Below, in pieces: positions 4,690 to 46,446 of a stretch of DNA of 64,000 nucleotides (positions are counted from its first letter, which is position 1; each line of letters starts with the position of its first letter). The stretch is from Alphaproteobacteria bacterium (GTDB lineage Bacteria; Pseudomonadota; Alphaproteobacteria; Acetobacterales; Acetobacteraceae). Under the pieces are notes generated by a model, which was not told where the DNA came from, did not search any database, and worked only from the letters and a program-made list of their open reading frames with translations. Location: positions 8,998 to 72,997 of the forward strand of contig VGDL01000003.1 in the NCBI GenBank assembly GCA_016869735.1, read 5' to 3'. The position numbers and the translations under genes were made by a program.

Positions 4690-5331
4690 TTAGCCCCGCC
4701 CGTAGCCTGCAAAATGCTTGGCCGCTTCGGCCAATTCCGCTTCCGTCAGCAAGACAGGCTTCAACCCCGCCGCCAATAGATCGAGGTATTGGCCAGCGAG
4801 GTTTTCAACCTCCAACGCCAGCGCATGCGCGGCGCCCAAGGTTGCGCCCACCGCGACCACACCATGATTGGCAAGCAATACGGCCCGCCGCCCGGCCAGC
4901 GCGCGAAGCGCGTTATCAGCAAGCGCTTGCGTGCCCGCAGTGGCGTGACCCGCACAGGCAATGGCGCCGCCGGCCAACAGCACCATGTAATGCAAGGGCG
5001 GGATGCCCTTGCGCGCACAGGAAAGTGCGGTCGCGCGCGGGGAATGCGTATGCACCACGGCCATCACCTCAGGCCGCGCGCCGTAGATCGCCGCATGCAG
5101 CCGCCATTCAGATGAAGGCCGATGTTTTGCGCGGCCAAGCGGGCTGCCATCCAAGCCCGTGGTCACCAGATCAGCCACCGTGGTGCGCGCATAAGGCAGG
5201 CCAGCCGGCGTGATGATGAAACCCTTCGCATCGCGCGCCGAGACATTGCCGGATTTGGAGGGCATCATGCCCGCCTGATCCAGTGCTTGCGCGATGCGGA
5301 GAATCTCCCGCTTGGCCTCAGCACGCGTCAC
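4690..5331 (-). CDS. Class II aldolase/adducin family protein
   Basis: Blocks SGNVSARD, VVHTHSPRATALS, NHGVVAVG. ATGA overlap with the upstream dehydratase gene. Confidence 0.85.
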   Translation of the reverse strand: MTRAEAKREILRIAQALDQAGMMPSKSGNVSARDAKGFIITPAGLPYARTTVADLVTTGLDGSPLGRAKHRPSSEWRLHAAIYGARPEVMAVVHTHSPRATALSCARKGIPPLHYMVLLAGGAIACAGHATAGTQALADNALRALAGRRAVLLANHGVVAVGATLGAAHALALEVENLAGQYLDLLAAGLKPVLLTEAELAEAAKHFAGYGRG

Positions 5332-6863
5332 ATGGTTGCTCCCAACATCCAGGGCGCGAATTCCTGCGCGCCGAAGCCAAGCGCTTCGCTTTTCGTGGGT
5401 TCGCCGGAAGCGGTGCGCAGCATCAACTCAAAAATGCGCTGGCCGCATTCCTGCACGCTTTCGCCACCTGTCAGGATGGTGCCGCAATTGATGTCCATGT
5501 CTTCCGACAGGCGATCATACATGGTGGTATTGGTGGCCAGCTTGATGGAAGGTGCCGGCTTCATGCCAAAGACGCTGCCGCGCCCCGTGGTGAAGCAGAC
5601 AAGATTGGCGCCACCCGCCACCTGCCCTGTCGCCCCCACCGGGTCGTAGCCAGGCGTGTCCATGAAAACGAAGCCCTTGGCGGTAACGGGTTCGGCATAG
5701 CGATAGACCTCAACCAGATTGGTGGTGCCAGCCTTGGCCATGGCGCCCAGGGATTTTTCGAGGATGGTGGTAAGACCGCCCGCCTTATTCCCCGGCGATG
5801 GGTTGGCATTCATCTCCGCACCTTGGCGGGCGGTATAATCCTCCCACCAATGCATAACATCCACCAGTTTCTGGCCAACGTCGCGAGATACCGCGCGGCG
5901 TGTCAGCAAATGTTCAGCGCCATAGGTCTCCGGGCTTTCAGACAGGATCACGGTGCCGCCATGGCGCACGAGCAGATCGGATGCAGCGCCAAGTGCAGGA
6001 TTGGCAGTGATGCCGGAATAGCCATCCGAACCGCCGCATTGCAGTGCGACGCAAAGTTCGGAGGCAGGAACGGCTTCGCGCTTCGCGGTATTGGATTCCG
6101 CCAGCACTTCCTTCACGAAATCTATGCCCTTCATCACGGTCGCGCGCGCACCCGCATCCTGAATATCCATGCTGCGCAGCCGCCCGGTCAGGCGCTGTTC
6201 TTCCAACATCGGGCCAGGCTGATTGACTTCACAGCCAAGGCCAATCGCAATCACATGGGAAAAATTCGCGTGTCGCGCGAAACCGGCGAGGGTCCGCCGT
6301 AGCAGCCGCAAGGGCTCATCCATGGTCATGCCGCAGCCGGTTTTATGCGTCAGCGCCACCACGCCATCCACATTGCTCCAGGCGGCCAAAGGATCATCGC
6401 CGGAGATTGGGTTTTTCTCGAATTGCCGCGCAATCAATTCCGCAACATGGGCGGAACAATTCACCGATGTGATAATGCCGATGTAATTGCGTGTTGCCAC
6501 ACGGCCATCGGCGCGGCGAATACCCATGAAGCTTGCCGGCACATCAACATAGTCGGTCGGCTTCGCATCCTGGCCCCAGGCGTAATCACGCGCGAAATCG
6601 CCCATTTCGCAATTATGCGTATGCACCCAGGCGCCAGGTTCAATCGCATCCGTCGCAAAGCCAATGATCTGGCCATAGCGCTTGATGGGCTCGCCCTTCG
6701 CATGCGGGCGGATCGCGACCTTATGGCCGGGCGGGATGCGCCTTTCGCCAACGCTGATGCCGGGCGCCACTTCTGTCCCCGGCGTCAACGGAATGCGGGC
6801 AATCACCACGCCATCGCTGGGATGCAGACGGATGGCGGGCGGCAGGGCGATGGTGCTGGACAT
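5328..6863 (-). CDS. UxaA/altronate-dehydratase family sugar-acid dehydratase
   Basis: N-terminal SAF-like segment (DGVVIARIPL...GHKVAI) followed by UxaA C-terminal-type blocks (GLGCEVNQ, GGSDGYSGITANP, CFTTGRGS); 511 aa. Confidence 0.88.
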   Translation of the reverse strand: MSSTIALPPAIRLHPSDGVVIARIPLTPGTEVAPGISVGERRIPPGHKVAIRPHAKGEPIKRYGQIIGFATDAIEPGAWVHTHNCEMGDFARDYAWGQDAKPTDYVDVPASFMGIRRADGRVATRNYIGIITSVNCSAHVAELIARQFEKNPISGDDPLAAWSNVDGVVALTHKTGCGMTMDEPLRLLRRTLAGFARHANFSHVIAIGLGCEVNQPGPMLEEQRLTGRLRSMDIQDAGARATVMKGIDFVKEVLAESNTAKREAVPASELCVALQCGGSDGYSGITANPALGAASDLLVRHGGTVILSESPETYGAEHLLTRRAVSRDVGQKLVDVMHWWEDYTARQGAEMNANPSPGNKAGGLTTILEKSLGAMAKAGTTNLVEVYRYAEPVTAKGFVFMDTPGYDPVGATGQVAGGANLVCFTTGRGSVFGMKPAPSIKLATNTTMYDRLSEDMDINCGTILTGGESVQECGQRIFELMLRTASGEPTKSEALGFGAQEFAPWMLGATM

Positions 6864-6970
6864 GGGCGTTTCCCTTTGACGACAGTCACGCCCCTTCTAC
6901 CCCGTTGCGCGCCCGGCGCGCCACCGCCGCCCTTGCGCAAGCCTGCGTGAGGGCGCAATTAAATGATTGA

Positions 6971-7063
6971 GACACCTGGGGGAGCCCTTTTGGGGCTGAG
7001 AGGCGGGCTTCACCCGCGACCCCTGGAACCTGACCCGGTTCGGACCGGCGTAGGGAAGGGTGC
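6971..7063 (+). promoter_or_regulatory. TPP (THI-box) riboswitch aptamer
   Basis: The + strand reads CACCUGGGGGAGCCCUUUUGGGGCUGAGAGG-CGGGCUUCACCCG-CGACCCCUGGAACCUGACCCGGUUCGGACCGGCGUAGGGAAGGGUG. The invariant blocks CUGAGA, ACCUGA and GCGUAGGGAA occur in canonical order. P3 is AGCCC/GGGCU, P5 is CCGGU/ACCGG, P1 is CACC/GGUG. It sits 100 nt upstream of the ATG at 7164. Confidence 0.85.
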
Positions 7064-7163
7064 ATCGCCCGCGCGTCTGCGCTTCGCCCCTGGTCTGGGC
7101 GGGCGTGGCCAGGGCCAAAGCCCTCCTCCCCGCGTCAGCCGACAGGAAACGAAGGAATTGGGG

Positions 7164-8741
7164 ATGCATCGCCGTACGCTTTTAGCCACCGCCCTCGCCG
7201 CGCCTTTGCCGCGCCCTGCCCTGGCGCAGCCCAGCCGCGCGCGCACACTGCGCTTTATGCCGCAGGCGGCACTCGCCAATCTGGACCCGATCTTCAGCCC
7301 CAGCACCATCATCACCACCCATGCCTATTGCGTGTTTGATACGCTCTATGGCGCCAATCGCGCGCTGCAGCCGCGCCCGCAAATGGCGGAAGGCCATAGC
7401 GTGGAAGATGACGGCAAGCGTGTAAAAATCCGCCTGCGCGAAGGGCTGCGCTGGCATGATGGCGAAGCCGTGCGTGCCCAGGATTGTGTGGCCAGCATCA
7501 AGCGCTGGGCGAGCCGCGATGGCTTCGGCCAAATCCTGATGCGCGCCACGGCCGAGCTTTCCGCGCCTGATGATCGCACCATCGAATTCCGCCTGCATCG
7601 GCGCTTCCCGGCGCTGTTTGATGCTTTGGCCAAGCCAGGTTCATCCCCGTGTTTCATGATGCCAGAACGCATCGCCAATAATCCCGGTGATCGTTCACTT
7701 GGCCTGGAACACATGATCGGCAGCGGGCCGTGGCGCTTTATTGCCAATGAATATGTGCAAGGTGCCCGCAGCCATTATGCGCGCAATGACGCCTATGTGC
7801 CGCGCACTGAAACCGCCGAAGCGGCTTCAGGCGGCAAGCGCGTGCATTTCGACAGGCTGGAGATGATCTGGATTCCAGATGGCGGCACGGCGGCAGCGGC
7901 ACTCCGCACTGGTGAGATTGACTGGATCGAATACCCACTGCCGGATCTGGTGCCGGTGCTGGAACGGGACCGGAATACGCAAACCCAGATTTATGACCCG
8001 AACGGGTTTTTGGGTTTTCTGCGCTTCAATCATTTGCACCCGCCCTTCAATGATGTGCGGGTGCGTCGCGCCATTCGTGATGTGATCGTGCAATCCGATT
8101 TCATGTCGGCGGTGGCGCTGCAAGGTGATTGGCAGGAATGCCACGCCATGTTCCCCTGCGGCCTACCAGGCGTGGTGGAATTCCCCGCCGCTGCACGCGG
8201 TGAAGCCGCCATGGAACGCGTCCGCGCCGCCTTGCGGGAAGCGGCCTATAATGGCGAGCCCATTATCCACATCAACCCAAGCGATTTCCCCGCGGTCACG
8301 CAACAAGGCCGCCTGACGGTGGAACTGATGCGCCGGCTTGGCGTGAATATGCAGCCGATTGAAGCCGATTGGGCCAGCATTCTGGCGCGGCGCGCCAATC
8401 GCAATCCGCCGGCGCAGGGTGGGTGGCATTTGCACAATACCAATGGCCCGGCGGCAACCATCGCCAATCCTGCCGTGAGCTTCGCCATTCGCATGAATGG
8501 GCAAGCCGCCTGGCCTGGCTGGCCGACGGATGCGGATGCAGAAGCGCAGGTGGAAGCCTGGATCAATGCCGATGATCAGGCAGCACAGGACACCGCCATG
8601 CGCCGCTTGCAGGAAATCACTTGGGAATCACTGCCCTTTGCGCCGACAGGCTTGTTCCGGCTTCGCACCGCTTTCCGGCGCGATTTGACGGGCGTGTTGC
8701 AAGGGCCGAACCCCTTTCTCTGGAATCTGCGGCGGGCGTGA
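7164..8741 (+). CDS. ABC-type substrate-binding protein, family 5 (Opp/Dpp/Nik type), Tat signal, no cognate permease nearby
   Basis: MHRRTLLATALAAPLPRPALAQ twin-arginine signal; size and blocks (GSGPWRF etc.) of family-5 SBPs; GAAGGAA SD. The ORF-track start at 6963 is rejected because it would translate the riboswitch. Confidence 0.88.
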   Translation: MHRRTLLATALAAPLPRPALAQPSRARTLRFMPQAALANLDPIFSPSTIITTHAYCVFDTLYGANRALQPRPQMAEGHSVEDDGKRVKIRLREGLRWHDGEAVRAQDCVASIKRWASRDGFGQILMRATAELSAPDDRTIEFRLHRRFPALFDALAKPGSSPCFMMPERIANNPGDRSLGLEHMIGSGPWRFIANEYVQGARSHYARNDAYVPRTETAEAASGGKRVHFDRLEMIWIPDGGTAAAALRTGEIDWIEYPLPDLVPVLERDRNTQTQIYDPNGFLGFLRFNHLHPPFNDVRVRRAIRDVIVQSDFMSAVALQGDWQECHAMFPCGLPGVVEFPAAARGEAAMERVRAALREAAYNGEPIIHINPSDFPAVTQQGRLTVELMRRLGVNMQPIEADWASILARRANRNPPAQGGWHLHNTNGPAATIANPAVSFAIRMNGQAAWPGWPTDADAEAQVEAWINADDQAAQDTAMRRLQEITWESLPFAPTGLFRLRTAFRRDLTGVLQGPNPFLWNLRRA

Positions 8742-8747
8742 CCCGCC

Positions 8748-9596
8748 TCAGCAACCGCCCGGCGCGTCTTCCAACTTCACCAGTTTGGCGCGCACGGTGA
8801 AATCGCCGAAATCCATGATCATGTCATCCGCCACGCCATTTTCGAAATAACGGAGCGAGACTTCGTAGGATGGCGTGCGCGCCCCGCCGGCCTGTTCGCC
8901 ATCGGGTTCAAAAAACGCGATGCGCATGCGCGCTGAACCGAGTGTGGACAGGCTTGGCGCTTCCGGCACGGGCATCGGCCCCTGCCAGGGCGATAGCACC
9001 GTCGTGGTTTGCTGCGCACCATCGGCCGAGGTGCCATCAAAAATCGGCGCCACCAGCAGGCGCTGGCCGGCGCGCGCGGCATTCAGCGCGGCGATGGTGT
9101 GGGTGTTGGGCAGAAGCGTGCCGGGGGGAATCGGCAATTCCCTGGTTTCAGATTCGCTGTAGCGCACCGTGCCGCTGCCATCTGCGCCAAGTTCCGCCTG
9201 CCCCGCCACGCGGCTGGAAACGGCGCCCTGTGTCATTTGCGTCAGACTGAAGCGCAAATTGCGCCCATCCATGGATTCCAGCGTTGCATAGTCAGATGCG
9301 GTTTCAAGTTCCGTGCCTTCACGGCTGCGGATCGTCAGGGAAAATCGCTGCCGTGTTGTCCAGCTTTCGCAAGCGTCAATCAATTCATAAAGCATCGCGC
9401 CCGATGCTTCGACAATGCCCGCATTTTCCCGCGCGCGGTCCAGGGTCATGCTGTAAATGGCGCGATGGGATGCGAGCGCCTGCGCCGTGAGAGGCGCAAG
9501 CGGGGCCGTAGTCGCCGGCGCATCCTTCGATCCCTGGGCGTAGCCTGGGGTGGCGGGCAGAATCAGCGCAAGGGCCAGAATGGCAGGAAACCGCAT
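8748..9596 (-). CDS. DUF1849/EipB-like periplasmic cell-envelope integrity protein
   Basis: Sec signal MRFPAILALALILPATPGYAQG; 282 aa. Cys76 (IDACESW) and a C-terminal Cys282 match the conserved early-Cys/terminal-Cys disulfide described for Brucella EipB (from memory). HRAIYSMTL opening block. Confidence 0.6.
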   Translation of the reverse strand: MRFPAILALALILPATPGYAQGSKDAPATTAPLAPLTAQALASHRAIYSMTLDRARENAGIVEASGAMLYELIDACESWTTRQRFSLTIRSREGTELETASDYATLESMDGRNLRFSLTQMTQGAVSSRVAGQAELGADGSGTVRYSESETRELPIPPGTLLPNTHTIAALNAARAGQRLLVAPIFDGTSADGAQQTTTVLSPWQGPMPVPEAPSLSTLGSARMRIAFFEPDGEQAGGARTPSYEVSLRYFENGVADDMIMDFGDFTVRAKLVKLEDAPGGC

Positions 9597-11607: not shown

Positions 11608-12795
11608 ATGAACCGCCGCCCCGCCGCCCCGGCAGCCAGCCAGAACCCCGCCCTGATCACCGATACAGGCAGCCTCGCCGCGCTGTGTGACCGGCTGAAG
11701 CATGAGCCCTTCGTGACTGTGGACACGGAATTCATGCGCGAACGCACCTATTGGCCGGAGCTTTGCCTGGTGCAGCTGGCCGGCCAGCATGAGGTCGCTT
11801 TGGTGGATGCCCTGGCGCCGGGGCTTGATTTGGGACCTCTCTGTGAATTGATGGCGCTGCCCCATGTCGTGAAGGTGTTTCACGCCGCCCGGCAGGATGT
11901 GGAAATTTTTTTGCTGAAATTCGGCGCCGTGCCCTACCCGATCTTTGATACGCAAATCGCCGCCATGGTGGCCGGGTTTGGCGATCAGGCATCCTATGAT
12001 TCGCTCTGCCGATCCCTTGCGGGCGTGCAGATAGACAAGGCCCATCGCTTCAGCGATTGGTCGGCCCGTCCCTTATCCGAAAGCCAATTGGCCTATGCGG
12101 CGGCGGATGTGACGCATTTGCGGAAGATTTTCGTCTCCCTCACGCTGCGCCTCGAACGGGAAGGCCGGATTGATTGGGTGGGGCAGGAGATGGGCGCGCT
12201 CGCCGATCCCGCGACCTATTTGACCGACCCGGACACGGCTTGGGAAAAGCTCCGCCCACGCACGTCAAACCGGCGGTTTCTGGGCGTTTTGCGCGCCATC
12301 GCTGCCTGGCGGGAACGTGAGGCCCAGCGGATCAATATCCCGCGCCAGCGGCTGGTGAAGGATGATACGCTGCTGGAAATCGCGGCCACCATGCCCGATA
12401 ATGCTGGGGAATTGGCCCGCGCGCGGGGCATTTCGGAAAATTTCGCCAAGGGCAAGTCCGGTGAGGGCCTGCTGGCCGCCATCCGCCAGGCCCGGGCGCT
12501 GCGCGAAGAAGAATTGCCGCAATTGCAGAAGGAAAAGGCCGGCCCACCGCCCTCCCCCGCGCTGATTGCGCTGCTGAAAGTGCTGCTGGCCGCGAAGTCC
12601 GAGGAGCATGATGTGGCGCCGCGGCTGCTCGCTTCCGGGGAAGATCTGGAAAAGCTGGCCACGGGGCAGGATGATGTGCCGGCGCTTTCTGGCTGGCGGC
12701 GGGAAGTGTTTGGCGGGGCTGCCTTGGCGCTGCGGTCCGGACAATTGGCCCTTGGGGTGGATGGCAGGCGCGTGAAGCTGATCCCGGCGGGTTGA
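11608..12795 (+). CDS. rnd: Ribonuclease D
   Basis: DEDDy exonuclease blocks FVTVDTEFMRERTYWPELCLVQL and YAAADVTHL, then an HRDC-like region. ATG 11608 chosen because the ORF-track start 11350 overlaps aspS. Confidence 0.9.
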   Translation: MNRRPAAPAASQNPALITDTGSLAALCDRLKHEPFVTVDTEFMRERTYWPELCLVQLAGQHEVALVDALAPGLDLGPLCELMALPHVVKVFHAARQDVEIFLLKFGAVPYPIFDTQIAAMVAGFGDQASYDSLCRSLAGVQIDKAHRFSDWSARPLSESQLAYAAADVTHLRKIFVSLTLRLEREGRIDWVGQEMGALADPATYLTDPDTAWEKLRPRTSNRRFLGVLRAIAAWREREAQRINIPRQRLVKDDTLLEIAATMPDNAGELARARGISENFAKGKSGEGLLAAIRQARALREEELPQLQKEKAGPPPSPALIALLKVLLAAKSEEHDVAPRLLASGEDLEKLATGQDDVPALSGWRREVFGGAALALRSGQLALGVDGRRVKLIPAG

Positions 12796-12805
12796 GTATT
12801 TTCAA

Positions 12806-12825
12806 GCCAAGTGGTGACACTTGGC
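12806..12825. terminator. Perfect 8-bp hairpin between convergent genes (weak candidate terminator)
   Basis: GCCAAGTG-gtga-CACTTGGC. On the - strand it is followed by TTGAAAAT. Confidence 0.35.
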
Positions 12826-12893
12826 GGCTCGGAAAATACGATCGAGAAAGCTCTTGGTTTGGTTGCTGTGAACGGAGGTGAACAGGAACCAAA

Positions 12894-13217
12894 CTAACCC
12901 TGGGGCCCCAGCCCTTCCAGAAAGATAATCGCAGCCGCCGCCAGACCAAGCGCGCAGAACAGCATGGACAACATGGGCCAGGCATTGCGCGGGCCGCGCA
13001 TGGCGATCACCGCATTGCCCACCAACGATACCATCACCGCCGCCACAGGCTGGGACCAATGAAATTCCCGAAAGCCCCAGACAATGAGCGCGATCCAGGC
13101 AATGAAGGCCGCGCGCGCCAGCCATTGCCAGAATATGGACGCCACTTCCGAAGCGGGCCGCATCTCTGGCGCCCCGCTTTTGGATTGGATGAAGGCGCCG
13201 ATCGAAAGCAGCACCAT
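12894..13217 (-). CDS. Small integral membrane protein, unknown function
   Basis: About 107 aa with three hydrophobic helices (MVLLSIGAFIQ, AAFIAWIALIVWGF, MLSMLFCALGLAAAAIIFL). Start uncertain (ATG 13217, or TTG about 40 nt upstream). The longer ORF-track start overlaps the GT4 gene. Confidence 0.45.
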   Translation of the reverse strand: MVLLSIGAFIQSKSGAPEMRPASEVASIFWQWLARAAFIAWIALIVWGFREFHWSQPVAAVMVSLVGNAVIAMRGPRNAWPMLSMLFCALGLAAAAIIFLEGLGPQG

Positions 13218-13330
13218 GGCGGCATAATAAAGGGTCACGAATGTTTCATTGCCGCCCAAAAGCGCCCTCGGCAAGGGGTTTTTTGCCGGCCATGGTCGCC
13301 CTTCGCGCCATTCCGCGCTAACCCTACGCC

Positions 13331-14464
13331 ATGCCCGCCCCACCCCCTGCAATCTTGCAAGTGCTGCCTGCGCTCCGCTCCGGGGGCGTGGAACGCGGCA
13401 CGCTGGAAATTGCCGAGGCACAAATCGCGGCTGGTTACCGCGCCATTGTGGCTTCCGCGGGCGGGGACATGGTGCCGGCTTTGGAAGCACTCGGGGCGAA
13501 GCACGTCACCCTGCCGCTGACCGCCAAATCGCCCTTCGCCATCTGGCGCAATGCGGCGGCACTTGCGGCGCTGGCGCGGGCGGAAGGGGTTGGGCTGATC
13601 CATGCGCGTTCCCGCGCGCCGGCTTGGTCGGCGCAGATGGCGGCCAGACGCGCGGGACTGCCCTTCGTCACCACCTATCACGGTGCCTATAATGAGGGCT
13701 TTCCGGGCAAGCGTTTCTATAATTCCGTGATGGCGCGGGGCGACCGCGTGATTGCCATCAGCCATTTCATCGCCGATCTGATTCGCACCCGGCATGGCGT
13801 GGCGGAATCGCGCCTGCGCGTGATCCCGCGCGGCGTGGACCCGCGGCGCTTCGATCCTGCGCTGGTCAGCGCCGAAAGGCTCGAAAAGCTACGCACTGCC
13901 TGGAGCCTGCCGGAAGGCCACCCAATCATCATGCTGCCAGCGCGCGTGACGCGCTGGAAGGGCCAGATGGTGCTGGTGGAGGCCATGGCGCGGCTGCAAG
14001 GTGATTCGCTCGCGCTGCTGGTGGGGGATGCGGAAGAACGCCCGGCCTTCAAGGCGGAACTCCTCGCGCGGATTGAAAGCCTGGGGCTGAAGGAGCGCCT
14101 GCGTCTGGTGGGGCACGCGGCTGACATGCCGGCGGCGCTGCTGCTGGCGGATGTGGTTATCCATGCCTCCACCGATGCGGAAGCCTTTGGCCGCACGGTA
14201 ATCGAAGCCCAGGCCATGGCGCGGCCGGTGATTGCAAGCGATCTGGGCGCGCCGCGCGAAACCGTGGCCGAGGGCATCACCGGTTGGCGCATCCCGCCCG
14301 GCGATGCGGCGGCGCTGGCGGGGGCCATCGGCAAGGTGCTGGCCCTGCCGGCGGCAGAACGCGCGGCATTCGGCACGCGGGCGCGGGCGGCGGTGCTGGC
14401 GGGCTACACAACGCAATCCATGCAGGCCGCGACCATCGCGGTTTACCGGGAATTGCTGCCATGA
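13331..14464 (+). CDS. Glycosyltransferase family 4 (GT-B, LPS/polysaccharide)
   Basis: N-terminal SGGVERGT block and EAFGRTVIEAQAMARPVIASDLGAPRETV (E-x7-E) motif. Confidence 0.9.
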   Translation: MPAPPPAILQVLPALRSGGVERGTLEIAEAQIAAGYRAIVASAGGDMVPALEALGAKHVTLPLTAKSPFAIWRNAAALAALARAEGVGLIHARSRAPAWSAQMAARRAGLPFVTTYHGAYNEGFPGKRFYNSVMARGDRVIAISHFIADLIRTRHGVAESRLRVIPRGVDPRRFDPALVSAERLEKLRTAWSLPEGHPIIMLPARVTRWKGQMVLVEAMARLQGDSLALLVGDAEERPAFKAELLARIESLGLKERLRLVGHAADMPAALLLADVVIHASTDAEAFGRTVIEAQAMARPVIASDLGAPRETVAEGITGWRIPPGDAAALAGAIGKVLALPAAERAAFGTRARAAVLAGYTTQSMQAATIAVYRELLP

Positions 14465-15387
14465 CGCAGCGTATTCTGCTGATCAAGCTGGGTGCACTCG
14501 GGGATTTCGCCCAGGCTTTTGGCCCCTTCGCCGCGATCAGGACGCATCATCCGGGGGCCGAGATCACCCTGTTGACCACAGCGCCCTTCGCCCCCCTCGC
14601 CCGGCAAGCGCCCTGGTTTGACCGGGTTTGGGATAATGGCCGCCCCAGGGGCCTAGCCGCGCTTTGGGCTTTGGGGCGGAGGCTGCGCGCGGCGCGGTTC
14701 GACAGGGTTTATGATTTGCAGACCTCGGGCAGGTCATCGCGCTATCGCTGGCTCATCGGGCGCAGCGTGGAATGGTCCGGCATTGCCGCCGGCGCTTCCC
14801 ACCCGCATGCCAATCCGCGCCGCGATTTCATGCACACGGTGGAACGCCAGCGGGAGCAATTGGCAATGGCCGGCATCAGTCATTTCCCGGCGCCTGAACT
14901 CGCTTGGCTGGATGCCGATATCACGCGCTTTGCCCTGCCGGAGCATTTTGCGCTGCTGATCCCCGGTGCCTCCCCCGGCCGGCCGGCCAAGCGTTGGCCG
15001 GTGGAAGCCTTCGGCGCCTTGGCGGGCGCGCTTGATCTGCCCGCCGTGATCCTGGGGGGGCCTGCGGAGGCAGCTTTGGGCGCGGCGATCAGCCAGGCGG
15101 CACCCTCAGCGCGCGATCTGACGGGCCAGACCAGCTTTGCCGATATCGCCGCACTCGCCCGGCGCGCCGCTTTTTGCATCGGCAATGACACGGGCCCGAC
15201 CCATTTGGCCGCCGTGGCCGGCTGCCCGACGCTGGCGCTGTTTGGCGAAGATAGCGACCCCGCGCTTTGCGCCCCGCGCGGCCCGCGCGCGGCTGTGCTG
15301 CGCCGCCAGCCCCTTTCCGCCCTGCCCACTGCTGAAGTAAAGGCAGCGCTTCAGGAATTGATCTCATCACCCGCCGCAACGGCTTGA
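14461..15387 (+). CDS. Glycosyltransferase family 9 (LPS heptosyltransferase-like)
   Basis: MTQRILLIKLGALGDF and GNDTGPTHLAA blocks. ATG 14461 forms an ATGA overlap with the GT4 stop. Confidence 0.88.
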   Translation: MTQRILLIKLGALGDFAQAFGPFAAIRTHHPGAEITLLTTAPFAPLARQAPWFDRVWDNGRPRGLAALWALGRRLRAARFDRVYDLQTSGRSSRYRWLIGRSVEWSGIAAGASHPHANPRRDFMHTVERQREQLAMAGISHFPAPELAWLDADITRFALPEHFALLIPGASPGRPAKRWPVEAFGALAGALDLPAVILGGPAEAALGAAISQAAPSARDLTGQTSFADIAALARRAAFCIGNDTGPTHLAAVAGCPTLALFGEDSDPALCAPRGPRAAVLRRQPLSALPTAEVKAALQELISSPAATA

Positions 15388-15443: not shown

Positions 15444-17378
15444 ATGCCCGCGATTACCCTGCCCGATGGTTCCATCCGCCAATTTGACGGCGCGGTGACG
15501 GGCACCACTATCGCGGCGGCGATTGGCCCTGGCCTCGCCAAGGCCGCGCTCGCCATGGAAGTGGATGGCAAGCTGCGCGATCTTTCGGCCTCCATCAGCC
15601 AAGACGCCAAGCTGCGCTTCATCACGCGCCGCGATCCCGAAGCGCTGGAGATGATCCGCCATGATTGCGCCCATGTGCTGGCGGAAGCCGTGCAGGCGCT
15701 TTACCCCGGCACGCAGGTCACGATCGGCCCTTCGATCGAAAACGGCTTCTATTACGATTTCGCCCGCAATGATCCCTTCACGCCGGATCACTTCGCCAAG
15801 ATCGAAGCGAAGATGCGTGAAATCATCGCGCGCAATGACGCTTTTCTGCGCGAAGAATGGGAGCGCGAGGATGCCATTCGTTTCTTCACTGAAAAGGGCG
15901 AACGCTACAAGGCGGAACTGATCCAGGATTTGCCGAAATCCGAGATCATCAGCATCTACAAGCAAGGTGCCTGGACGGATCTTTGCCGCGGCCCGCATAT
16001 GCGCGGCACGGGCGATATCGGCACTGCCTTTAAGCTGATGAAAGTGGCCGGCGCCTATTGGCGCGGCGATCATCGCAATGCCATGCTGAGCCGGATTTAC
16101 GGCACCGCCTGGCGCGACCAGAAGGAACTCGACGCCTATTTGTTGCAGTTGGAAGAAGCGGAAAAGCGCGACCACCGCAAGATCGGCAAGGAAATGGGGC
16201 TGTTCCACCTCCAGGATGAAGCGGTGGGTTCGGTCTTCTGGCATCCCAAGGGCTGGCGGCTTTATCGCACCGTGGAAGCCTATATGCGCCGGCGGCTTGA
16301 TATTGCCGAGTATCAGGAAGTGAAGACGCCGCAGCTGGTGGATCGCAAGCTTTGGGAAGCGTCCGGCCATTGGGAGAAATTCCGCGAAAACATGTTCGTC
16401 GCGCGCGTGGAAGACGAAGATGAAAAGGACCGCGTGCTCGCGCTGAAGCCAATGAATTGCCCCTGCCATGTGCAGATTTTCAATCAGGGCTTGCGTTCTT
16501 ATCGGGAATTGCCATTGCGCATGGCGGAATTTGGCGCCTGCCATCGCTATGAACCATCAGGCGCGCTACACGGCATCATGCGGGTGCGGAGCTTTGTGCA
16601 GGATGATGCGCATATCTTCTGCGCCGAAGAACAGATCGCCGATGAGACAGTGCGTTTTGTGGCGCTGCTGTCGTCCATCTATCGCGATTTCGGCTTTACC
16701 GAATTCCGCGTGAAATTCTCCGACCGCCCGGCGCGGCGCGCGGGCACGGATGCGGTGTGGGATCAGGCGGAAGGTGCGCTGAAAGACGCCTGCCGCATCG
16801 CGGGCGTGGAATATGAACTCAACCCCGGTGAGGGCGCCTTTTATGGCCCCAAGCTGGAATTCGTGCTGCGCGATGCGATTGGCCGGGATTGGCAATGTGG
16901 CACGCTGCAAGTGGATTTCGTGCTGCCGGAACGGCTGGATGCGGAATATGTCGCCGAAGATGGCGCCCGCCGCCGCCCCGTTATGCTGCACCGGGCCATC
17001 CTCGGGTCTTTTGAACGATTCCTGGGTATTTTGATCGAAGAACATGCCGGGCGCTTCCCGCTTTGGCTCGCGCCCGTTCAGGTGGTGGTGGCGACCATTG
17101 TGGATGAAGCCGCCCCCTTCGCCCGTCAGGCGGCTGCGGCTTTGCAAAAGGCCGGGGTCGCGGTTTCGCTTGATCTCAGAAACGAAAAAATCAACCGCAA
17201 GGTGGTGGACCATATTGACCAGCGCGTGCCGGTGCTGGCCGTGATTGGCCGGCGAGAAGCTGAGGAAGGCACCATTGTGCTCCGCCGCCTGCCGGGGCGG
17301 GATCAGGAAACGCTGAAGCTTGCTGATGCGGTGGCGCTATTGGCCGCCGAGGCAACGCCGCCCGATCTGCGCGGATAA
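15444..17378 (+). CDS. thrS: Threonine--tRNA ligase
   Basis: 644 aa; TGS-type N-terminus ([11 protein letters not shown]), editing domain, class II core ([16 protein letters not shown]), anticodon-binding C-terminus. Confidence 0.97.
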
Positions 17379-17495
17379 GGCAACATTCAGAAAGGATTTG
17401 ACCGCCCAAGGGCCGCAAACCTCAAGTGAAACTTGCAGCCCGCCGCCCAAAAGCCCATAAAAGCGCCATTCTGATAACCTCGACAGGAGAGTACC

Positions 17496-41806: not shown

Positions 41807-42883
41807 TTACGGCATCGCGACATCAATGCCCTGATAGAAATAGTTCTGCGCGCGGATTTCATCATCCGAAAGGCGCCGGCCCGCTGGGATGACTACCGTG
41901 CCATCCTGGCGCGTGATCGGGCCTTCAAACGGGTGCAGCGTGCCAGCGGCAATGGCGTCGCGGATGCGCGTTGCTTCGCTGATCTCCTCGGGCGTCATAT
42001 TGGTGAAGGGGGCCATGCGGAACATGCCGCTGCCAAGCCCGCCCCAGGTATCCGTCGGGCGCCAGGTGCCATCCAGCACGGCCTTGGCACGTTCGGCGTA
42101 ATAGTCGCCCCAATTGTTGACGCTGCTGGTCAGATGGGCGCGCGGCGCGAAGCGCGTCATGTCGCTTGCCTGGCCGAAGCCAAAGACGCCGCGCTGTTCC
42201 GCCAATTGCAGCGGCGCCGGGCCATCGGTGTGGCTGCAGAGCACATCGCAGCCTTGGTCAATCAGAGCGCGCGCGGCATCGGCCTCTCGCGCGGGGTTCG
42301 ACCAGGCATTCACCCACACCACGCGGATTTTCATGGAAGGGTCAACGGACCAGGCGCCGCGCATGACGGTATTGATGGCGCTGATCACTTCCGGCACCGG
42401 GAAGGTGGCGACATAGCCAATCGTCTTGGAACGGGACTTGCGCGCGGCGATCACGCCCTGGATGTAGCGGCCTTCATAGAAGCGGGCATTGTAGATCGCC
42501 ATATTCGGCAGCGTTGTCGGGCCGGTGGCGTTCTCAAAAAACACGCCCGGATGCTGCGGCGCCAGCCGCTGCGTGGGGGCGAAATAGGAAAAGCTGGTGG
42601 TGAAGATCAGCCGATGCCCGGTGCGGACAAGCTGCGTCACCACGCGGTCGAAATCGGGCGGTGCGACGGATTCCACCGTGGTGGCATTGACGCGGTCGCC
42701 CAGCACCTCGGCCATGCGGCGGCGGCCCTGGTCGTGCATATGCGACCAGCCGAAATCGCCGACGGGGCCGATCAGGACGACGCCGACGTTCAGGCGCGAT
42801 TGCGCTTCGGCATGCTGGCCAGCCAGCGCAGCGCCGGCAAGACCGGCAGAACCGGCCATAAGGTGACGACGGGTGATATTCAT
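41807..42883 (-). CDS. BMP-family (nucleoside-type) ABC substrate-binding protein, Tat signal
   Basis: MNITRRHLMAGSAGLAGAALAG; VGVVLIGPVGDFGWSHMHDQG block typical of Bmp/PnrA-like SBPs. Confidence 0.88.
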   Translation of the reverse strand: MNITRRHLMAGSAGLAGAALAGQHAEAQSRLNVGVVLIGPVGDFGWSHMHDQGRRRMAEVLGDRVNATTVESVAPPDFDRVVTQLVRTGHRLIFTTSFSYFAPTQRLAPQHPGVFFENATGPTTLPNMAIYNARFYEGRYIQGVIAARKSRSKTIGYVATFPVPEVISAINTVMRGAWSVDPSMKIRVVWVNAWSNPAREADAARALIDQGCDVLCSHTDGPAPLQLAEQRGVFGFGQASDMTRFAPRAHLTSSVNNWGDYYAERAKAVLDGTWRPTDTWGGLGSGMFRMAPFTNMTPEEISEATRIRDAIAAGTLHPFEGPITRQDGTVVIPAGRRLSDDEIRAQNYFYQGIDVAMP

Positions 42884-42941
42884 GAGGGGCTCCCTAAAAA
42901 GCGATTCGCATTGAGCAAATTTAATGCCGATACGGAAGGGG

Positions 42942-43859
42942 CTATCTATCGGGCACGAATGGCACGCCGAGGGAGGCCGGGCCCGCCGCCCCGCCCCGCC
43001 TTGCCCGCATAATGAGCACCAGCACGAGAATCGTGATCAGATAGGGCAAGGCCGCCAGAAACTGCGATGGCAGCGGCACGCCGGCCGATTGCGCATGCAA
43101 TTGCAGGATGGTCAGCGCGCCAAACAGATAGGCGCCGAGCATGGCCCTGAAGGGCAGCCAGGAGGCAAAGACCACGATGGCAAGCGCAATCCAGCCGCGC
43201 CCCGCGGTCATGCCGCTGGTCCAGAAGGGCGTATAGACCAGGGACATGTAAGCGCCCGCCAAGCCCGCACAGCCGCCGCCGAACAGGATGGCAAGCAGGC
43301 GTATGCGCCGCACCGGATAGCCAAGCGCATGCGCCGCCGCGTGGTTTTCGCCGACCGCGCGCAAAACCAGCCCGGCGCGGCTTTTGGTGAGGAACCACCA
43401 GACGGCCACCACCAAAGCGATGGAGGCATAGACAAACGGGTCCTGGCGGAACAGCAGCGGGCCGAGAAAGGGAATTTCGGACAGCCAAGGGATCTCTATT
43501 TTGCCGATGCCCGCGCGCTGCACGCCGACAAAGGGCGCGCCGATCACACCGGAAAGCCCAAGCCCCAGAATGGCCAGAGCAAGCCCCGCCGCGACCTGAT
43601 TGGCCGCAAGCCCAAGCACGAGCGCGGCAAAAACCAGCGACAGCGCCATGCCTGCCAGCACGGCGACCAGCACGCCAAAACTGGACGACCCGGTGGTGAT
43701 GGCAGCCGCAATGCCGGCGGCAGCGCCGATCACCATCATGCCCTCAACGCCCAAATTCAAAACGCCAGCGCGTTCCACCACCAATTCGCCAATCGCCGCA
43801 ATCAGCAGCGGCGTTGACGCCGTAATGATGGTCAGGATGATGGCTTCGAACAGGGTCAT
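42942..43859 (-). CDS. ABC transporter permease (BMP-type system)
   Basis: 305 aa, polytopic; Bmp-system permease-like; ATGA-type overlap with the upstream permease. Confidence 0.88.
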   Translation of the reverse strand: MTLFEAIILTIITASTPLLIAAIGELVVERAGVLNLGVEGMMVIGAAAGIAAAITTGSSSFGVLVAVLAGMALSLVFAALVLGLAANQVAAGLALAILGLGLSGVIGAPFVGVQRAGIGKIEIPWLSEIPFLGPLLFRQDPFVYASIALVVAVWWFLTKSRAGLVLRAVGENHAAAHALGYPVRRIRLLAILFGGGCAGLAGAYMSLVYTPFWTSGMTAGRGWIALAIVVFASWLPFRAMLGAYLFGALTILQLHAQSAGVPLPSQFLAALPYLITILVLVLIMRARRGGAAGPASLGVPFVPDR

Positions 43860-44932
43860 GCGGCGGCACCCCGCAGCAGGCGGAAGCGATACAAAAGCAG
43901 GCTATCGCAGACCAGCACGAAGAACAGCAAAAGCCCTTGCAGCACGCGGGTAGCATCCAAAGGCAGGCGCAGCATGATTTGCGCATTCTCGCCACCGATG
44001 AAGGTGATGGCGATGAATATGCCGGCGAACAAACAGCCGATGGGATTGAGCCTGCCCAAGAAGGCAACAATGATGGCGGTGAAGCCATAGCCGGGTGAAA
44101 TGCCGGGCTGCAATTGCTTCACTGTGCCCGCCGCTTCCAACACACCTGCAAGTCCGGCGAGTGCGCCCGAGATCATGAAAACCGTGATCACCAAACCGGT
44201 TTCGGAAAATCCCGCAAAGCGCGCGGCGCGCGGTGCTTCGCCCACCAGGCGAATTTCAAACCCCTTCAGCGTGCGCCCCATCAGCAGCATAAAGCCAAGC
44301 ACCACCGCAATCATGATCGGCGTGCCGATATTGAGCCGCCCGCCCGCCATCAGCAGCGGCAGCGTCGCCTCCGGCTCAAACATCACGCTATTTGGCATGT
44401 TGAAGCCGGCAGGGTCTCGCCAGGGGCCGCGCACCAGGTAATCCAGCAGCAATTCCGCGACATAAACCAGCATCAGGCTGGTCAGGATTTCATTGGCGCC
44501 GAAGCGAGTGCGCAGCAATGCCGGGATCAGCGCAAAACAGGCACCCGCCATGGCGCCCATCAGCAGCATCACTGGCAATAGCCATGGGCCTTGCGTGCTG
44601 CCATGGGTGATGATGGCGACATAACCACCCGCCATGGCACCAAACAGGAATTGCCCCTCGGCGCCGATATTCCAGACCTTGGCGCGATAGCAGACCGCAA
44701 GCCCAACCGCGATGAGCACCAGCGGCGTCGCCTTCACCGCCACTTCCTGCAAGCCCCAGGAATCCGAAAGCGGATCAAGGAAATAGGTTTGCAACGCCGC
44801 CACCGGATCCTTGCCGAGCAGCGCGAACATGATGGCCGCCGATATCATGGTCAGCGCAACCGCAATCATGGGCGATATCAGCATCAGGCTGATCGGCGTT
44901 TCGCTGCGCTTTTCCATGACAAGCTTCATCAC
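43856..44932 (-). CDS. ABC transporter permease (BMP-type system)
   Basis: 358 aa, polytopic; 4-nt overlaps with the genes on both sides. Confidence 0.88.
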   Translation of the reverse strand: MMKLVMEKRSETPISLMLISPMIAVALTMISAAIMFALLGKDPVAALQTYFLDPLSDSWGLQEVAVKATPLVLIAVGLAVCYRAKVWNIGAEGQFLFGAMAGGYVAIITHGSTQGPWLLPVMLLMGAMAGACFALIPALLRTRFGANEILTSLMLVYVAELLLDYLVRGPWRDPAGFNMPNSVMFEPEATLPLLMAGGRLNIGTPIMIAVVLGFMLLMGRTLKGFEIRLVGEAPRAARFAGFSETGLVITVFMISGALAGLAGVLEAAGTVKQLQPGISPGYGFTAIIVAFLGRLNPIGCLFAGIFIAITFIGGENAQIMLRLPLDATRVLQGLLLFFVLVCDSLLLYRFRLLRGAAA

Positions 44933-46446
44933 GCCGCCATCCCCGCCCCGCCCATGAGTAGGCCGAGCGATTCACGTGTGGCTTCAGCAGTTGGCATGGC
45001 GGGCGAAAGCCTGCCCATGAAAATGACGCAAAGCCGATCTGAGATTTCCAGCAGCTCATCCAAATCCTGGCTGATCACCAGAACAGCACTGCCCGCGCGC
45101 GCGAGATCCATCAGCGCCTGGCGAATAGTGGCAGCGGCGCCGGCATCAACGCCCCAGCTTGGCTGCGCCACGACCAAAAGGCCGGGCTTGCGCGCAATTT
45201 CCCGGCCAATGACGAATTTCTGCAAATTGCCGCCGGATAGCGCGCGCGCTTCCGGATCGGCAGGGCCTTTACGCACATCAAAGGCACGCACCACCTTGCC
45301 CACAAAGTCAGTCAGCTTGGCGCGCTCCACCAGGCCGTAGCGCAAAAAACCATTAGTGGCATGGCCTGACAGCAGCGCGTTTTCCGTGAGCCGCATGGCA
45401 GGTGCGGCGCCATGCCCAAGCCGTTCTTCCGGCACAAAGGCTGCCCCGCGCCGGCGGCGTTCATTGATGCCAGCGCGGCCCACCGCGACACCATCCATGA
45501 CAATGGCGGCATCATGGGGGGCCAGCTCTTCACCGCTGAGGGCTGCAAAAAGCTCATCCTGGCCATTGCCGGCAACACCGGCGATGCCCAGCACCTCACC
45601 GGCGCGGAGTTCAAGATTTATGTTGGCGAGCGCGATGCCATGCGCATGCAGCGGCGGCAGTGAAAGCGCGGAGACCGCAAGCCGCACCGGGCCTTGCGCT
45701 TCAATGTGGTCATGGCGAATGGGCACGACATCGCCGCCCATCATCATGCGCGCGAGGCTTGCCGCGGTTTCCGCGCGCGGGTCGCAATGCGCCACTACCT
45801 GGCCGCCGCGCAAAATGGTCGCGGCTTCGCAAATGCGCCGCACCTCATCCAGTTTGTGGGAGATATAGAGCACTGAACGCCCCTCAGCGCGCAGCCTGGC
45901 AAGTGTCGCAAAAAGCCCTTCGGCTTCCTGGGGTGTCAGCACAGAAGTGGGTTCATCCAGGATCAGCAGGCTTGGGTCCTGCATCAGGCAGCGCATGATC
46001 TCAACGCGCTGCCGTTCGCCGACCGAAAGCCGCCAGACTTCGCGCTTGGGATCAAGTGGCAGGCCATAAGCGCGGCTGGTTTCAGAAAGGCGTTGGGCGA
46101 TTTCGTCCAAAGGTGCAGAGCCATCAAGCGCGAGGGCGACGTTTTCCGCGACCGTCAGTGCCTCAAACAGCGAGAAATGCTGGAATACCATGCCAATGCC
46201 AAGCGCGCGGGCGGCGCGGGGGCTTTCCACCGCAACAGGCGCGCCGCGCCAGACCAGCCGCCCGGCATCCGGGCGCAGCAGGCCATAGATGATTTTGACG
46301 AGCGTGGATTTGCCGGCACCGTTTTCGCCGAGCAGGGCATGGATTTCGCCGGGTGCGACCTTCAGGTCCACGGCGTTATTGGCCTCCAGCGCGCCGAAGC
46401 GCTTGGTAATGCCCTCAACGGCCAAAAGCGGGGGGGAAGCCTGCAT
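44929..46446 (-). CDS. ABC transporter ATP-binding protein, duplicated ATPase
   Basis: Walker A GENGAGKST, signature LSVGERQRVEI, second cassette LSGGNLQKFVI; 505 aa. Confidence 0.92.
   Translation of the reverse strand: MQASPPLLAVEGITKRFGALEANNAVDLKVAPGEIHALLGENGAGKSTLVKIIYGLLRPDAGRLVWRGAPVAVESPRAARALGIGMVFQHFSLFEALTVAENVALALDGSAPLDEIAQRLSETSRAYGLPLDPKREVWRLSVGERQRVEIMRCLMQDPSLLILDEPTSVLTPQEAEGLFATLARLRAEGRSVLYISHKLDEVRRICEAATILRGGQVVAHCDPRAETAASLARMMMGGDVVPIRHDHIEAQGPVRLAVSALSLPPLHAHGIALANINLELRAGEVLGIAGVAGNGQDELFAALSGEELAPHDAAIVMDGVAVGRAGINERRRRGAAFVPEERLGHGAAPAMRLTENALLSGHATNGFLRYGLVERAKLTDFVGKVVRAFDVRKGPADPEARALSGGNLQKFVIGREIARKPGLLVVAQPSWGVDAGAAATIRQALMDLARAGSAVLVISQDLDELLEISDRLCVIFMGRLSPAMPTAEATRESLGLLMGGAGMAA

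Follow-up and report, generated by a model that had tools for sequence, protein, structure and literature searches.

A gene at 7164..8741 on the + strand of the window, by which we mean the whole 64-kb stretch of DNA that was analyzed, encodes an orphan periplasmic solute-binding protein (SBP) of family 5 (cluster C, PepT-type). The 525-aa product matches PF00496 (SBP_bac_5) with an E of 1e-53, and its start is the ATG at 7164, not position 6963 as given in the list of open reading frames. A 300-nt gap (6864-7163) separates the gene from a divergent upstream gene resembling those for galactarate/altronate dehydratases (5328-6863), and a convergent EipB-like gene (8748-9596) ends 6 nt past the SBP stop codon; the gap and the close convergent neighbor had both been described in the earlier note, with which these coordinates agree. 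Searches with tblastn across the 64-kb window revealed no Dpp/Opp-type permease, oligo_HPY ATPase, or second family-5 SBP, and the sole ABC system, which occupies 41810-46446, belongs to the BPD_transp_2 type. The description of the SBP gene as monocistronic, with no permease or ATPase nearby, thus holds in the window, and the orthologs likewise have no transporter partner beside them.

The N terminus of the protein (MHRR...ALA|Q) contains a twin-arginine motif within a signal peptide of the twin-arginine type, MHRRTLLATALAAPLPRPALA (7164..7226, + strand), for which cleavage is predicted at A-L-A|Q. Both arginines, R3 and R4, are kept without exception in 20 relatives, and their conservation is 90% or higher in a set of 71; from its motif, the protein would be exported by the Tat pathway. 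The AF2 model of the SBP has a pLDDT of 91.3 overall and below 50 for residues 1-21.

Aptamer and Its Conservation

A scan of the whole window with cmscan yielded a single Rfam match, to RF00059 (TPP riboswitch), at 6968-7074 on the + strand with a score of 69.5 bits (E 1.4e-11), above the gathering score of 54.3 bits for this family and covering model positions 1-105 of 105, the full length. The THI-box that the earlier note had recognized on the + strand is therefore recovered by Rfam, and its placements of CUGAGA, ACCUGA, GCGUAGGGAA, and P5 agree with the matched aptamer. From 5' to 3' the aptamer comprises the 5' strand of the P1 helix (CACCU, 6973-6977, paired with GGGUG at 7058-7062), the pyrimidine-sensor block CUGAGA (6996-7001), a P3a hairpin GCGGG-CUUCA-CCCGC (7003-7017), the pyrophosphate-sensor block ACCUGA (7028-7033), the P5 helix (CCGGU, 7035-7039, paired with ACCGG, 7044-7048), and a third conserved block, GCGUAGGGAA (7048-7057). 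The CGGG-cuuca-CCCG insert that had been taken for an extra element is the variable P3a helix of the Rfam consensus model. The pyrimidine sensor (CUGAGA) and the pyrophosphate sensor (ACCUGA ... CGUAGGGA) keep their canonical order, and the sensor blocks are invariant or nearly so over 41 orthologous leaders. The 3' end of the aptamer lies 89 nt from the ATG of the SBP gene, on the same strand.

Across these 41 leaders (36 of them distinct), 96.1% of the cells in the aptamer helices are paired and 8 pairs have changed on both sides, in an alignment that was fitted to the model and thereby favors the structure. The covariation score was reached by 0 of 500 shuffles, and in controls with a slid register the pairing collapsed to 26-58%. 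Judged by its sequence, the aptamer at 6968-7074 is a genuine TPP riboswitch.

The riboswitch lies upstream of the orthologous gene in 12 of 13 named genomes (loci L001-L006, L081, L084, L085, L087, L145 from Roseomonas mucosa, and L146) and in all 30 of the metagenomic orthologs for which upstream DNA is present, so that the linkage for which the earlier note had proposed a test in related genomes is borne out. The orthologous leaders score 56-68 bits with the Rfam model and 86-132 bits with a custom covariance model (CM). The closest relatives of the SBP, 93-95% identical, are found on metagenome contigs, and the ortholog occurs in Roseomonas species, R. mucosa and R. gilardii among them, as well as in relatives that are abundant in fresh water. 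The Roseomonas that carry it are of clinical and ecological relevance.

Paralogs present a different picture, with the custom CM detecting the riboswitch at none of the paralog loci of 38-55% identity, 74 from genomes and 20 from metagenomes, and Rfam at its gathering threshold at none of the 21 paralog loci to which it was applied. Strict and loose regular expressions and CM searches for paralog riboswitches gave loose-regex matches and a weak CM match at L041, none of which was confirmed by Rfam. On a neighbor-joining tree, the 39 tips that bear the riboswitch all fall within a single 42-tip clade, which excludes 88 paralog tips; by this tree the riboswitch-linked SBPs are one clade with a single loss, in Belnapia. 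The Belnapia rosea ortholog (L086, 70% identity) has no riboswitch and follows an unrelated ORF after a 54-nt gap. The linkage of riboswitch and SBP is not due to chance, and the SBP of the window appears, from these comparisons, to found a TPP-riboswitch-linked clade in the Roseomonas-group Acetobacteraceae.

The genes flanking the riboswitch-SBP unit vary among genomes and the unit itself stays together, so that the unit is what selection conserves. This bears on the notion that the aptamer is an inherited relic without a present regulatory role for the SBP, for which the loss of the aptamer in the Belnapia lineage might be cited. Yet all the aptamer sequences score above the Rfam threshold, their helices have been maintained by compensatory substitutions, and the aptamer has been kept over orthologs of 58% to 95% protein identity despite the rearrangement of flanking genes, and we consider a relic extremely improbable.

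Leader and Mode of Control

The promoter of the riboswitch-SBP transcript presumably lies, because of its position, in the divergent intergenic region at 6864..6967 (+ strand). An AT-rich patch, AATTAAATGATT, is found at ~6957-6968, directly 5' of the aptamer; a scan of the region upstream of the aptamer for the sigma-70 consensus gave no site. Downstream of the aptamer, the expression platform (7075..7163, + strand) contains a C-rich candidate anti-Shine-Dalgarno (anti-SD) element, CCCUCCUCCCC, at 7121-7131 and a purine-rich ribosome-binding region, AAGGAAUUGGGG, at 7152-7163. No intrinsic terminator with a U-tract was found in the leader.

Predicted folds of 37 distinct orthologous leaders place the SD (GGAGG in most of them) in a paired state, with a mean unpaired probability of 0.16-0.18, and a C-rich anti-SD and a hairpin that contains the SD are predicted in most orthologous leaders. 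The anti-SD has an alternative potential partner in 27 of 35 leaders, namely the 3' half of the aptamer, which is rich in G. These folding predictions suggest that control would be translational, through sequestration of the SD. A truncated two-state folding model gave equal SD accessibility in both states, with no P1-dependent opening, and since accessibility did not differ, a simple mechanism in which the 3' strand of P1 acts as an anti-anti-SD is unsupported.

The leader of the window also has complementarity between GGUGCAUC (7059-7066, which includes 3' nucleotides of P1) and GAUGCAUC (7163-7170) across the start codon. In the subgroup to which the window belongs, the duplex has a predicted energy of -12 to -14 kcal/mol (z of -2 to -3.5 against shuffles), and the MFE fold of the leader pairs the two segments. 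Start-codon pairing of this kind, were it functional, would point to a switch of the opposite sign, in which the TPP-bound riboswitch activates translation; control mainly through Rho or mRNA stability would be a further departure from the canonical mode. With activation, the SBP would serve a TPP-replete function. The complementarity is not conserved clade-wide, however (mean z of -0.9, with 11 of 37 leaders below -1.5), and we rejected it as a conserved feature because it is restricted to the subgroup of the window, whereas the feature that is conserved is the SD-sequestering C-rich element. To our knowledge, moreover, the characterized bacterial TPP riboswitches are OFF switches, and we regard reversed or otherwise non-canonical regulation as very unlikely.

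Genomic Context and Candidate Permease Partners

All of the orthologs are orphans without an adjacent cognate transporter, no BPD_transp_1 permease or oligo_HPY ATPase being found within 6-10 kb of the ortholog in any of the 13 genomes. The majority of the 74 paralog loci are likewise orphans. The earlier note was right that the SBP stands alone, but this is less surprising in an expanded paralog family whose members are usually orphans. Other paralogs do belong to dppBCDF-type operons, and two genomes carry such an operon as well as the riboswitch-linked ortholog: Roseococcus sp. YIM B11640 has two SBP5 genes together with dppBCDF (BPD_transp_1, oligo_HPY) at locus L041 and the ortholog at L084, and Siccirubricoccus deserti has an SBP5/Dpp-type operon at L038 and the riboswitch ortholog at L004.

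No conserved partner gene was found beside the SBP gene, the neighbors differing across the ortholog genomes. Two candidate partners were rejected: the ~530-aa unannotated ORFs that flank L085 and L086 are unrelated to one another, and a GMC oxidoreductase gene that follows a relative of 52% identity (P0097) is present in that genome only.

An SBP that is an orphan in every genome could serve as a sensor that detects thiamine or another ligand in the periplasm and signals to a chemoreceptor, a sensor kinase, or another signaling protein. SBP-dependent signaling is well documented, and at L081 a two-component pair (response regulator and histidine kinase) follows the ortholog on the same strand after 64 nt. 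This neighbor is present in only 1 of the 13 genomes, however, and many orphan family-5 SBPs are served by a shared permease, with candidate Dpp-type permeases available in the same genomes. A sensory role is, in our estimate, quite unlikely.

Family Placement and Candidate Binding-site Residues

Public databases label the protein in generic terms ("dipeptide-binding," "GsiB," "peptide/nickel"), and its scores against the NCBIfam equivalog models lie far below the cut-offs for GsiB (65.5 versus 594), NikA (58.1 versus 393), DppA (36.4 versus 1005), and OppA (32.7 versus 947). No homology to ThiB or to ThiY/NMT1 was detected; Pfam gives only PF00496, and NCBIfam gives no thiamine-binding family. 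The top Foldseek matches in the PDB are all family-5 SBPs, in keeping with a two-lobed cluster C fold, with 8VDX first, followed by AgaA, YliB, and DppA. That first match, a protein of Bordetella bronchiseptica RB50, is the nearest one with a solved structure (phmmer E of 1.7e-106; Foldseek E of 5e-61, TM of 0.75-0.80, and 37% identity in the structural alignment). It belongs to the same subfamily as the paralogs of 40-50% identity and lies in the paralog tier of similarity, outside the riboswitch-linked clade. The entry is a structural-genomics deposit with no ligand assigned, and our search for it found no paper, the lone text match being unrelated.

We aligned the SBP with Escherichia coli DppA (precursor numbering), in which D436 binds the alpha-amino group of the peptide and R383 its C-terminal carboxylate. 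DppA D436 aligns to His424 of the SBP, a position occupied by H, F, or Y in relatives and lying three residues past an invariant tryptophan, Trp421, the counterpart of DppA W433. For DppA R383 there is no counterpart, as it belongs to a stretch of 3 residues that the whole subfamily lacks, although at an SBP-DppA identity of just 22% this position is aligned less securely than that of D436. With the first anchor replaced by histidine and the second in a gap, the SBP is, by this alignment, not a canonical peptide binder. Among the residues that are fixed in the riboswitch-linked clade and different in the paralogs, aromatic and acidic ones are over-represented (W190, Y257, F282, W487, D306, D322, and D456), as would fit a site for a cationic aromatic ligand.

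These features also bear on a bypass reading, in which the SBP imports a compound unrelated to thiamine, such as an unusual peptide, an amino-acid derivative, or an organic acid, that eases the effects of TPP shortage by supplying the products of TPP-dependent pathways, much as B12-independent isozymes are governed by cobalamin riboswitches. By fold and family the SBP is of the peptide/opine/glutathione type, and paralogs occupy ordinary dppBCDF operons, both of which would suit such an import. Against it, the DppA-type anchors for peptide termini are absent, and the riboswitch-linked clade has its own set of fixed residues, suggesting that a new specificity and the riboswitch arose together. 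A TPP riboswitch on a bypass function is also without known precedent (Sun et al. 2013, PMC3766115), and we regard this reading as unlikely.

Discussion

The clade-wide pairing of a TPP riboswitch with this SBP points, by regulatory logic, to a previously unrecognized SBP for thiamine or a related compound. All characterized bacterial targets of TPP riboswitches that we know of are genes of thiamine biosynthesis, salvage, or uptake, and on the same logic the protein is probably a thiamine-starvation-induced SBP for thiamine, a precursor, or a salvage product that uses a Dpp-type permease encoded elsewhere. Here we infer the identity of the ligand, the permease partner, and the OFF direction of the switch. 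As long as TPP is sufficient, the riboswitch would most likely occlude the Shine-Dalgarno region and so repress translation of the SBP; under TPP scarcity the SBP would be translated and exported to the periplasm, where it would capture thiamine (and possibly TMP or TPP as well), one of its precursors, or a salvage product and deliver it to a Dpp/Opp-type ABC permease that is encoded elsewhere and shared with paralogous SBPs.

Sun et al. 2013 (PMC3766115) name thiXYZ, ykoFEDC, cytX, thiU, thiW, thiT, pnuT, thiBPQ, and omp_thi as TPP-regulated transporters, a list that agrees with the earlier note in placing family-5 SBPs outside the known THI-box uptake systems. Our literature search returned no report linking a family-5 SBP to a TPP riboswitch. 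The chances seem to us evenly balanced that this is the first family-5 (PepT-type, cluster C) SBP dedicated to vitamin B1, its precursors, or its degradation products, a riboswitch-gated and Tat-exported "add-on" receptor through which a shared peptide-type ABC permease is turned to vitamin scavenging.

Among known systems, ThiB (TbpA), the binding protein of the ThiBPQ importer (TC 3.A.1.19), is likewise a periplasmic SBP commonly under a TPP riboswitch, and the presumed role, thiamine scavenging at low TPP, is alike. ThiB belongs to another SBP family and fold class, whereas the SBP of the window shows only PF00496, and thiB comes with permease and ATPase genes of its own (thiPQ), in contrast to the orphan gene described here; ligand binding has been shown for ThiB, whereas for the SBP of the window the ligand is deduced from its regulation. 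ThiY of the ThiXYZ system (NMT1/THI5-like) is also a TPP-riboswitch-regulated SBP, for the pyrimidine precursors HMP and FAMP, and as it binds a thiamine precursor, riboswitch-linked SBPs need not bind thiamine itself. ThiY differs in fold and is a member of the taurine-type ABC family, and its gene, unlike the orphan of the window, shares an operon with thiX and thiZ.

The proposed architecture is that of MppA and OppBCDF in E. coli, in which a family-5 SBP with no adjacent permease lends an Opp/Dpp-type translocator a new substrate. MppA differs in that it binds murein tripeptide and lacks riboswitch control, and its partnership has been shown genetically, whereas that of the SBP of the window is suggested by dppBCDF operons in the same genomes. 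The non-peptide family-5 SBPs, namely AgaA (agropinic acid), AccA (agrocinopine), NikA/NikZ (Ni-histidine), GsiB/GbpA (glutathione), and the Haemophilus ducreyi sialic-acid binder, have the fold in common with it and offer a precedent for the repeated evolution of small non-peptide specificity within the family, but at 12-20% identity and with no link to thiamine or a riboswitch.

Few genomic indicators of function are as reliable as riboswitch linkage, which has already revealed most of the known vitamin transporters. If the ligand is thiamine-related, the substrate range of PepT/cluster C would widen to vitamin B1, metabolic reconstructions would now underestimate B1 scavenging in these bacteria, and the locus would provide a clean natural case of an orphan receptor under metabolite control that shares a permease. 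The proposed function, if true, would add a new class to the thiamine-related uptake systems and give a ligand handle on the large uncharacterized orphan-SBP family of Acetobacteraceae and Bordetella. The finding itself opens a first way into the function of this much-expanded subfamily of orphan SBPs, of which 8VDX is the only solved member.

A TPP Riboswitch Precedes a Single Solute-binding Protein Gene

The sole Rfam match in the entire 64-kb window is to RF00059, the TPP riboswitch, at 6968–7074 on the + strand, and the Rfam scan covers the full model with a score of 69.5 bits (E 1.4e-11) against a gathering score of 54.3. The CUGAGA (6996–7001), ACCUGA (7028–7033), and GCGUAGGGAA (7048–7057) blocks follow one another on the + strand in the canonical order, confirming the THI-box that an earlier note had read from the sequence, and the strands CACCU (6973–6977) and GGGUG (7058–7062) form P1 on the same strand. 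The + strand hairpin GCGGG-CUUCA-CCCGC at 7003–7017, which that note took for an extra insert, belongs to the Rfam consensus as the variable P3a arm; the aptamer is an ordinary RF00059 member. In 41 orthologous leaders (36 distinct), 96.1% of the helix cells of the aptamer model are paired, both-sided base changes are found at 8 pairs, and the observed covariation score was reached by 0 of 500 shuffles. That an aptamer with this pairing record is a relic we consider exceedingly improbable.

The gene that follows (7164–8741, +) translates from ATG to stop into a 525-residue protein matching PF00496 (SBP_bac_5) with an E value of 1e-53, and its N terminus carries a twin-arginine motif (MHRRTLLATALAAPLPRPALA|Q) that is kept among relatives. 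It is a family-5 solute-binding protein (SBP) like DppA/OppA, GsiB, and NikA, yet it fails their tests, with NCBIfam similarity to GsiB, NikA, DppA, and OppA all far below threshold, and neither ThiB nor ThiY is related to it. The public names of its orthologs and relatives ("dipeptide-binding protein," "GsiB precursor," "peptide/nickel") are generic or misleading. On the opposite strand, a galactarate/altronate-dehydratase-like gene (5328–6863) lies divergently upstream and an EipB-like gene (8748–9596) lies convergently 6 nt past the SBP stop, the aspartyl-tRNA synthetase gene being next downstream. With a divergent gene before it and a convergent gene after it, the SBP gene is monocistronic, and it alone can be controlled in cis by the riboswitch, as the earlier note had held.

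The Riboswitch-SBP Linkage Is Clade-specific

Orthologs of the SBP at 58–95% identity span the Roseomonas group of Acetobacteraceae (Neoroseomonas, Siccirubricoccus, Roseococcus, Sabulicella, Humitalea, Muricoccus, and Pararoseomonas, and also R. mucosa and R. gilardii), and a large tier of paralogs is found at 38–55% identity. RF00059 scored above threshold 5' of the ortholog at loci L001–L006, L081, L084, L085, and L087. A custom covariance model built from seven leaders among these Rfam-positive loci located the aptamer upstream of two more orthologs, L145 (R. mucosa) and L146, and in 30 of 30 metagenomic orthologs with upstream DNA on the contig. Retention of the THI-box, which the earlier note had proposed checking, thus extends to 12 of 13 named genomes as well as these metagenomic sequences. 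The sole exception is Belnapia rosea, where no aptamer is present at the ortholog (L086, 8337–10001); this gene sits 54 nt after an unrelated 536-residue ORF that contains hydrophobic stretches and matches no Pfam family, and its downstream synteny (EipB-like, AspRS) is that of the window.

At paralogs the custom model found no aptamer in 74 genomic and 20 metagenomic loci, the official Rfam model was negative at all 21 paralog loci tested, and none precedes P0097, a relative at 52% identity. Of the 130 proteins in a neighbor-joining tree, 39 bear the riboswitch, and all of these are confined to one clade of 42, whose other members are the Belnapia protein and two from contigs ending at the gene. 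The neighboring genes vary among ortholog genomes; the conserved unit is the riboswitch and the SBP, whose regulatory link is genuine, restricted to the clade, and maintained by selection.

Several neighborhoods carry features of their own. In Plastoroseomonas hellenica (L082, 10001–13323), the gene of the nearest riboswitch-less relative, P0097, shares 4 nt with a gene for a GMC-family oxidoreductase. This arrangement, observed in that single genome, suggests that the sister lineage has another ligand, a catabolic one. The SBP gene of Roseomonas sp. CCTCC AB2023176 (L081) is followed 64 nt later, on the same strand, by genes for a response regulator and a sensor kinase with HAMP and HATPase domains (11630–13679, +), a neighborhood found in this genome alone. 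At the same locus, two tandem xanthine (NMT1, RF03054) aptamers (17131–17184 and 17367–17416, −) precede a 2OG-Fe(II) oxygenase gene (16085–17089, −). The R. mucosa ortholog (L145) has, 3.6 kb downstream, a pair of genes, one ThiS-like and one encoding ThiF plus rhodanese (13274–14721), which could take part in sulfur-carrier chemistry, whether for thiamine or for molybdopterin; the pair does not recur beside other orthologs. In Roseococcus sp. YIM B11640 (L084), an nhaA-I RNA (RF03057; 6485–6539, +) falls just within the 5' end of a called Na+/H+ antiporter gene (6469–7869, +), which probably starts further downstream, placing the RNA in its leader.

Predicted Folding of the Leader

The 89-nt spacer between aptamer and ATG contains no terminator-like U-tract, and orthologous leaders carry a C-rich element followed by a strong GGAGG Shine-Dalgarno sequence. 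By prediction this sequence is mostly paired (mean unpaired probability 0.16–0.18 in 37 distinct leaders), and forcing it open makes the C-rich element switch, in 27 of 35 leaders, to pairing with the aptamer's G-rich 3' half; blocking the P1 3' strand alone left its predicted accessibility unchanged. Such folding would be in keeping with the usual proteobacterial translational OFF switch. A reversed regulatory sign appears very doubtful. The element GGUGCAUC (7059–7066), overlapping the 3' strand of P1, is complementary to GAUGCAUC (7163–7170) over the start codon (−13.8 kcal/mol, z −3.1), and this pairing, if functional, would hide the AUG with P1 open, the opposite of the expected logic. 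It is common to the closest relatives of the window (L088–L094) and L006 and is not conserved across the clade as a whole.

The Binding Protein Is an Unlikely Canonical Peptide Receptor

The AF2 model of the SBP is confident (pLDDT 91.3). By structure and by sequence alike the protein is closest to 8VDX, a family-5 SBP of Bordetella bronchiseptica RB50 from structural genomics for which we found neither ligand nor paper, followed in structure by AgaA (agropinic acid), YliB/GsiB, and DppA. In DppA, Asp-436 holds the amino terminus of the peptide and Arg-383 its carboxy terminus. Aligned with E. coli DppA (NC_000913, precursor numbering), the position of Asp-436 is taken by His-424, three residues past an invariant tryptophan, and that of Arg-383 lies in a segment absent from the whole SBP subfamily; a role as canonical peptide receptor therefore seems unlikely from the alignment. 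Thirty positions are invariant in the riboswitch-linked clade yet different in paralogs, among them Trp-190, Tyr-257, Phe-282, Trp-487, Asp-306, Asp-322, Asp-456, Arg-305, Arg-383, and His-327. A site that binds a cationic aromatic compound, thiamine for example, would require such a gain of aromatic and acidic residues. That the protein instead receives a sparing or bypass nutrient is a minor possibility.

A Shared Permease as Candidate Partner

A census of 48 likely genes, together with tblastn searches with DppB, DppC, DppD, and DppF of a related genome, found no BPD_transp_1 permease, oligo_HPY ATPase, or second family-5 SBP within the 64-kb window, so the statement that no partner lies nearby holds over this whole stretch. 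The only ABC importer of the window (41810–46446, −) consists of two BPD_transp_2 permeases, a fused ATPase of 505 residues, and an SBP whose signal is of the twin-arginine type; its class is not that of Dpp/Opp, and its use by a family-5 SBP is implausible.

All SBP orthologs are orphans, with no adjoining permease or ATPase genes, as are most paralogs, and dppBCDF-like genes directly follow the SBP at about 15–18 of 74 paralog loci. Two of these systems, L041 and L038, encode BPD_transp_1 permeases and ABC_tran plus oligo_HPY ATPases by Pfam. Roseococcus sp. YIM B11640 holds L041 (4141–11518, +; two tandem family-5 SBP genes, then dppB, dppC, dppD, and dppF) and also the riboswitch ortholog L084, and Siccirubricoccus deserti holds both L038 and the riboswitch ortholog L004; a shared Dpp-type permease is therefore available in the same cells. 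L041 is itself a multi-receptor Dpp-type system. The E. coli protein MppA, which works through OppBCDF, is a precedent for an SBP borrowing a permease encoded elsewhere, and by this analogy we infer that the riboswitch-linked SBP may partner with a shared Dpp-type permease. A sensor role for the orphan protein is rather improbable.

The subfamily is strongly expanded in Acetobacteraceae (L007–L080, L119–L144), with several paralogs per genome and at least four in P. hellenica, most of them orphan and frequently close to TctC-family orphan SBPs. This suggests that the organization in Acetobacteraceae is generally one of many receptors and few permeases.

Proposed Function

Most likely, and with somewhat better than even confidence, the SBP would be an exported receptor, repressed by TPP through the riboswitch, for thiamine or a thiamine precursor or salvage product, which it would hand on to a shared Dpp-type permease. 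As a rough judgment, we would rank thiamine or its phosphates ahead of pyrimidine precursors, and these ahead of thiazole precursors. A published catalogue of TPP-regulated transporters (Sun et al. 2013, PMC3766115) includes no family-5 SBP, in agreement with the earlier note's claim that such proteins are absent from known THI-box-regulated uptake systems; the survey left out Rhodospirillales. Our literature search found no report of a family-5 SBP with a TPP riboswitch. What is new is the pairing and architecture, a previously undescribed union of a known riboswitch class with a known protein fold, and it offers a clear and cheap experimental route to a ligand.
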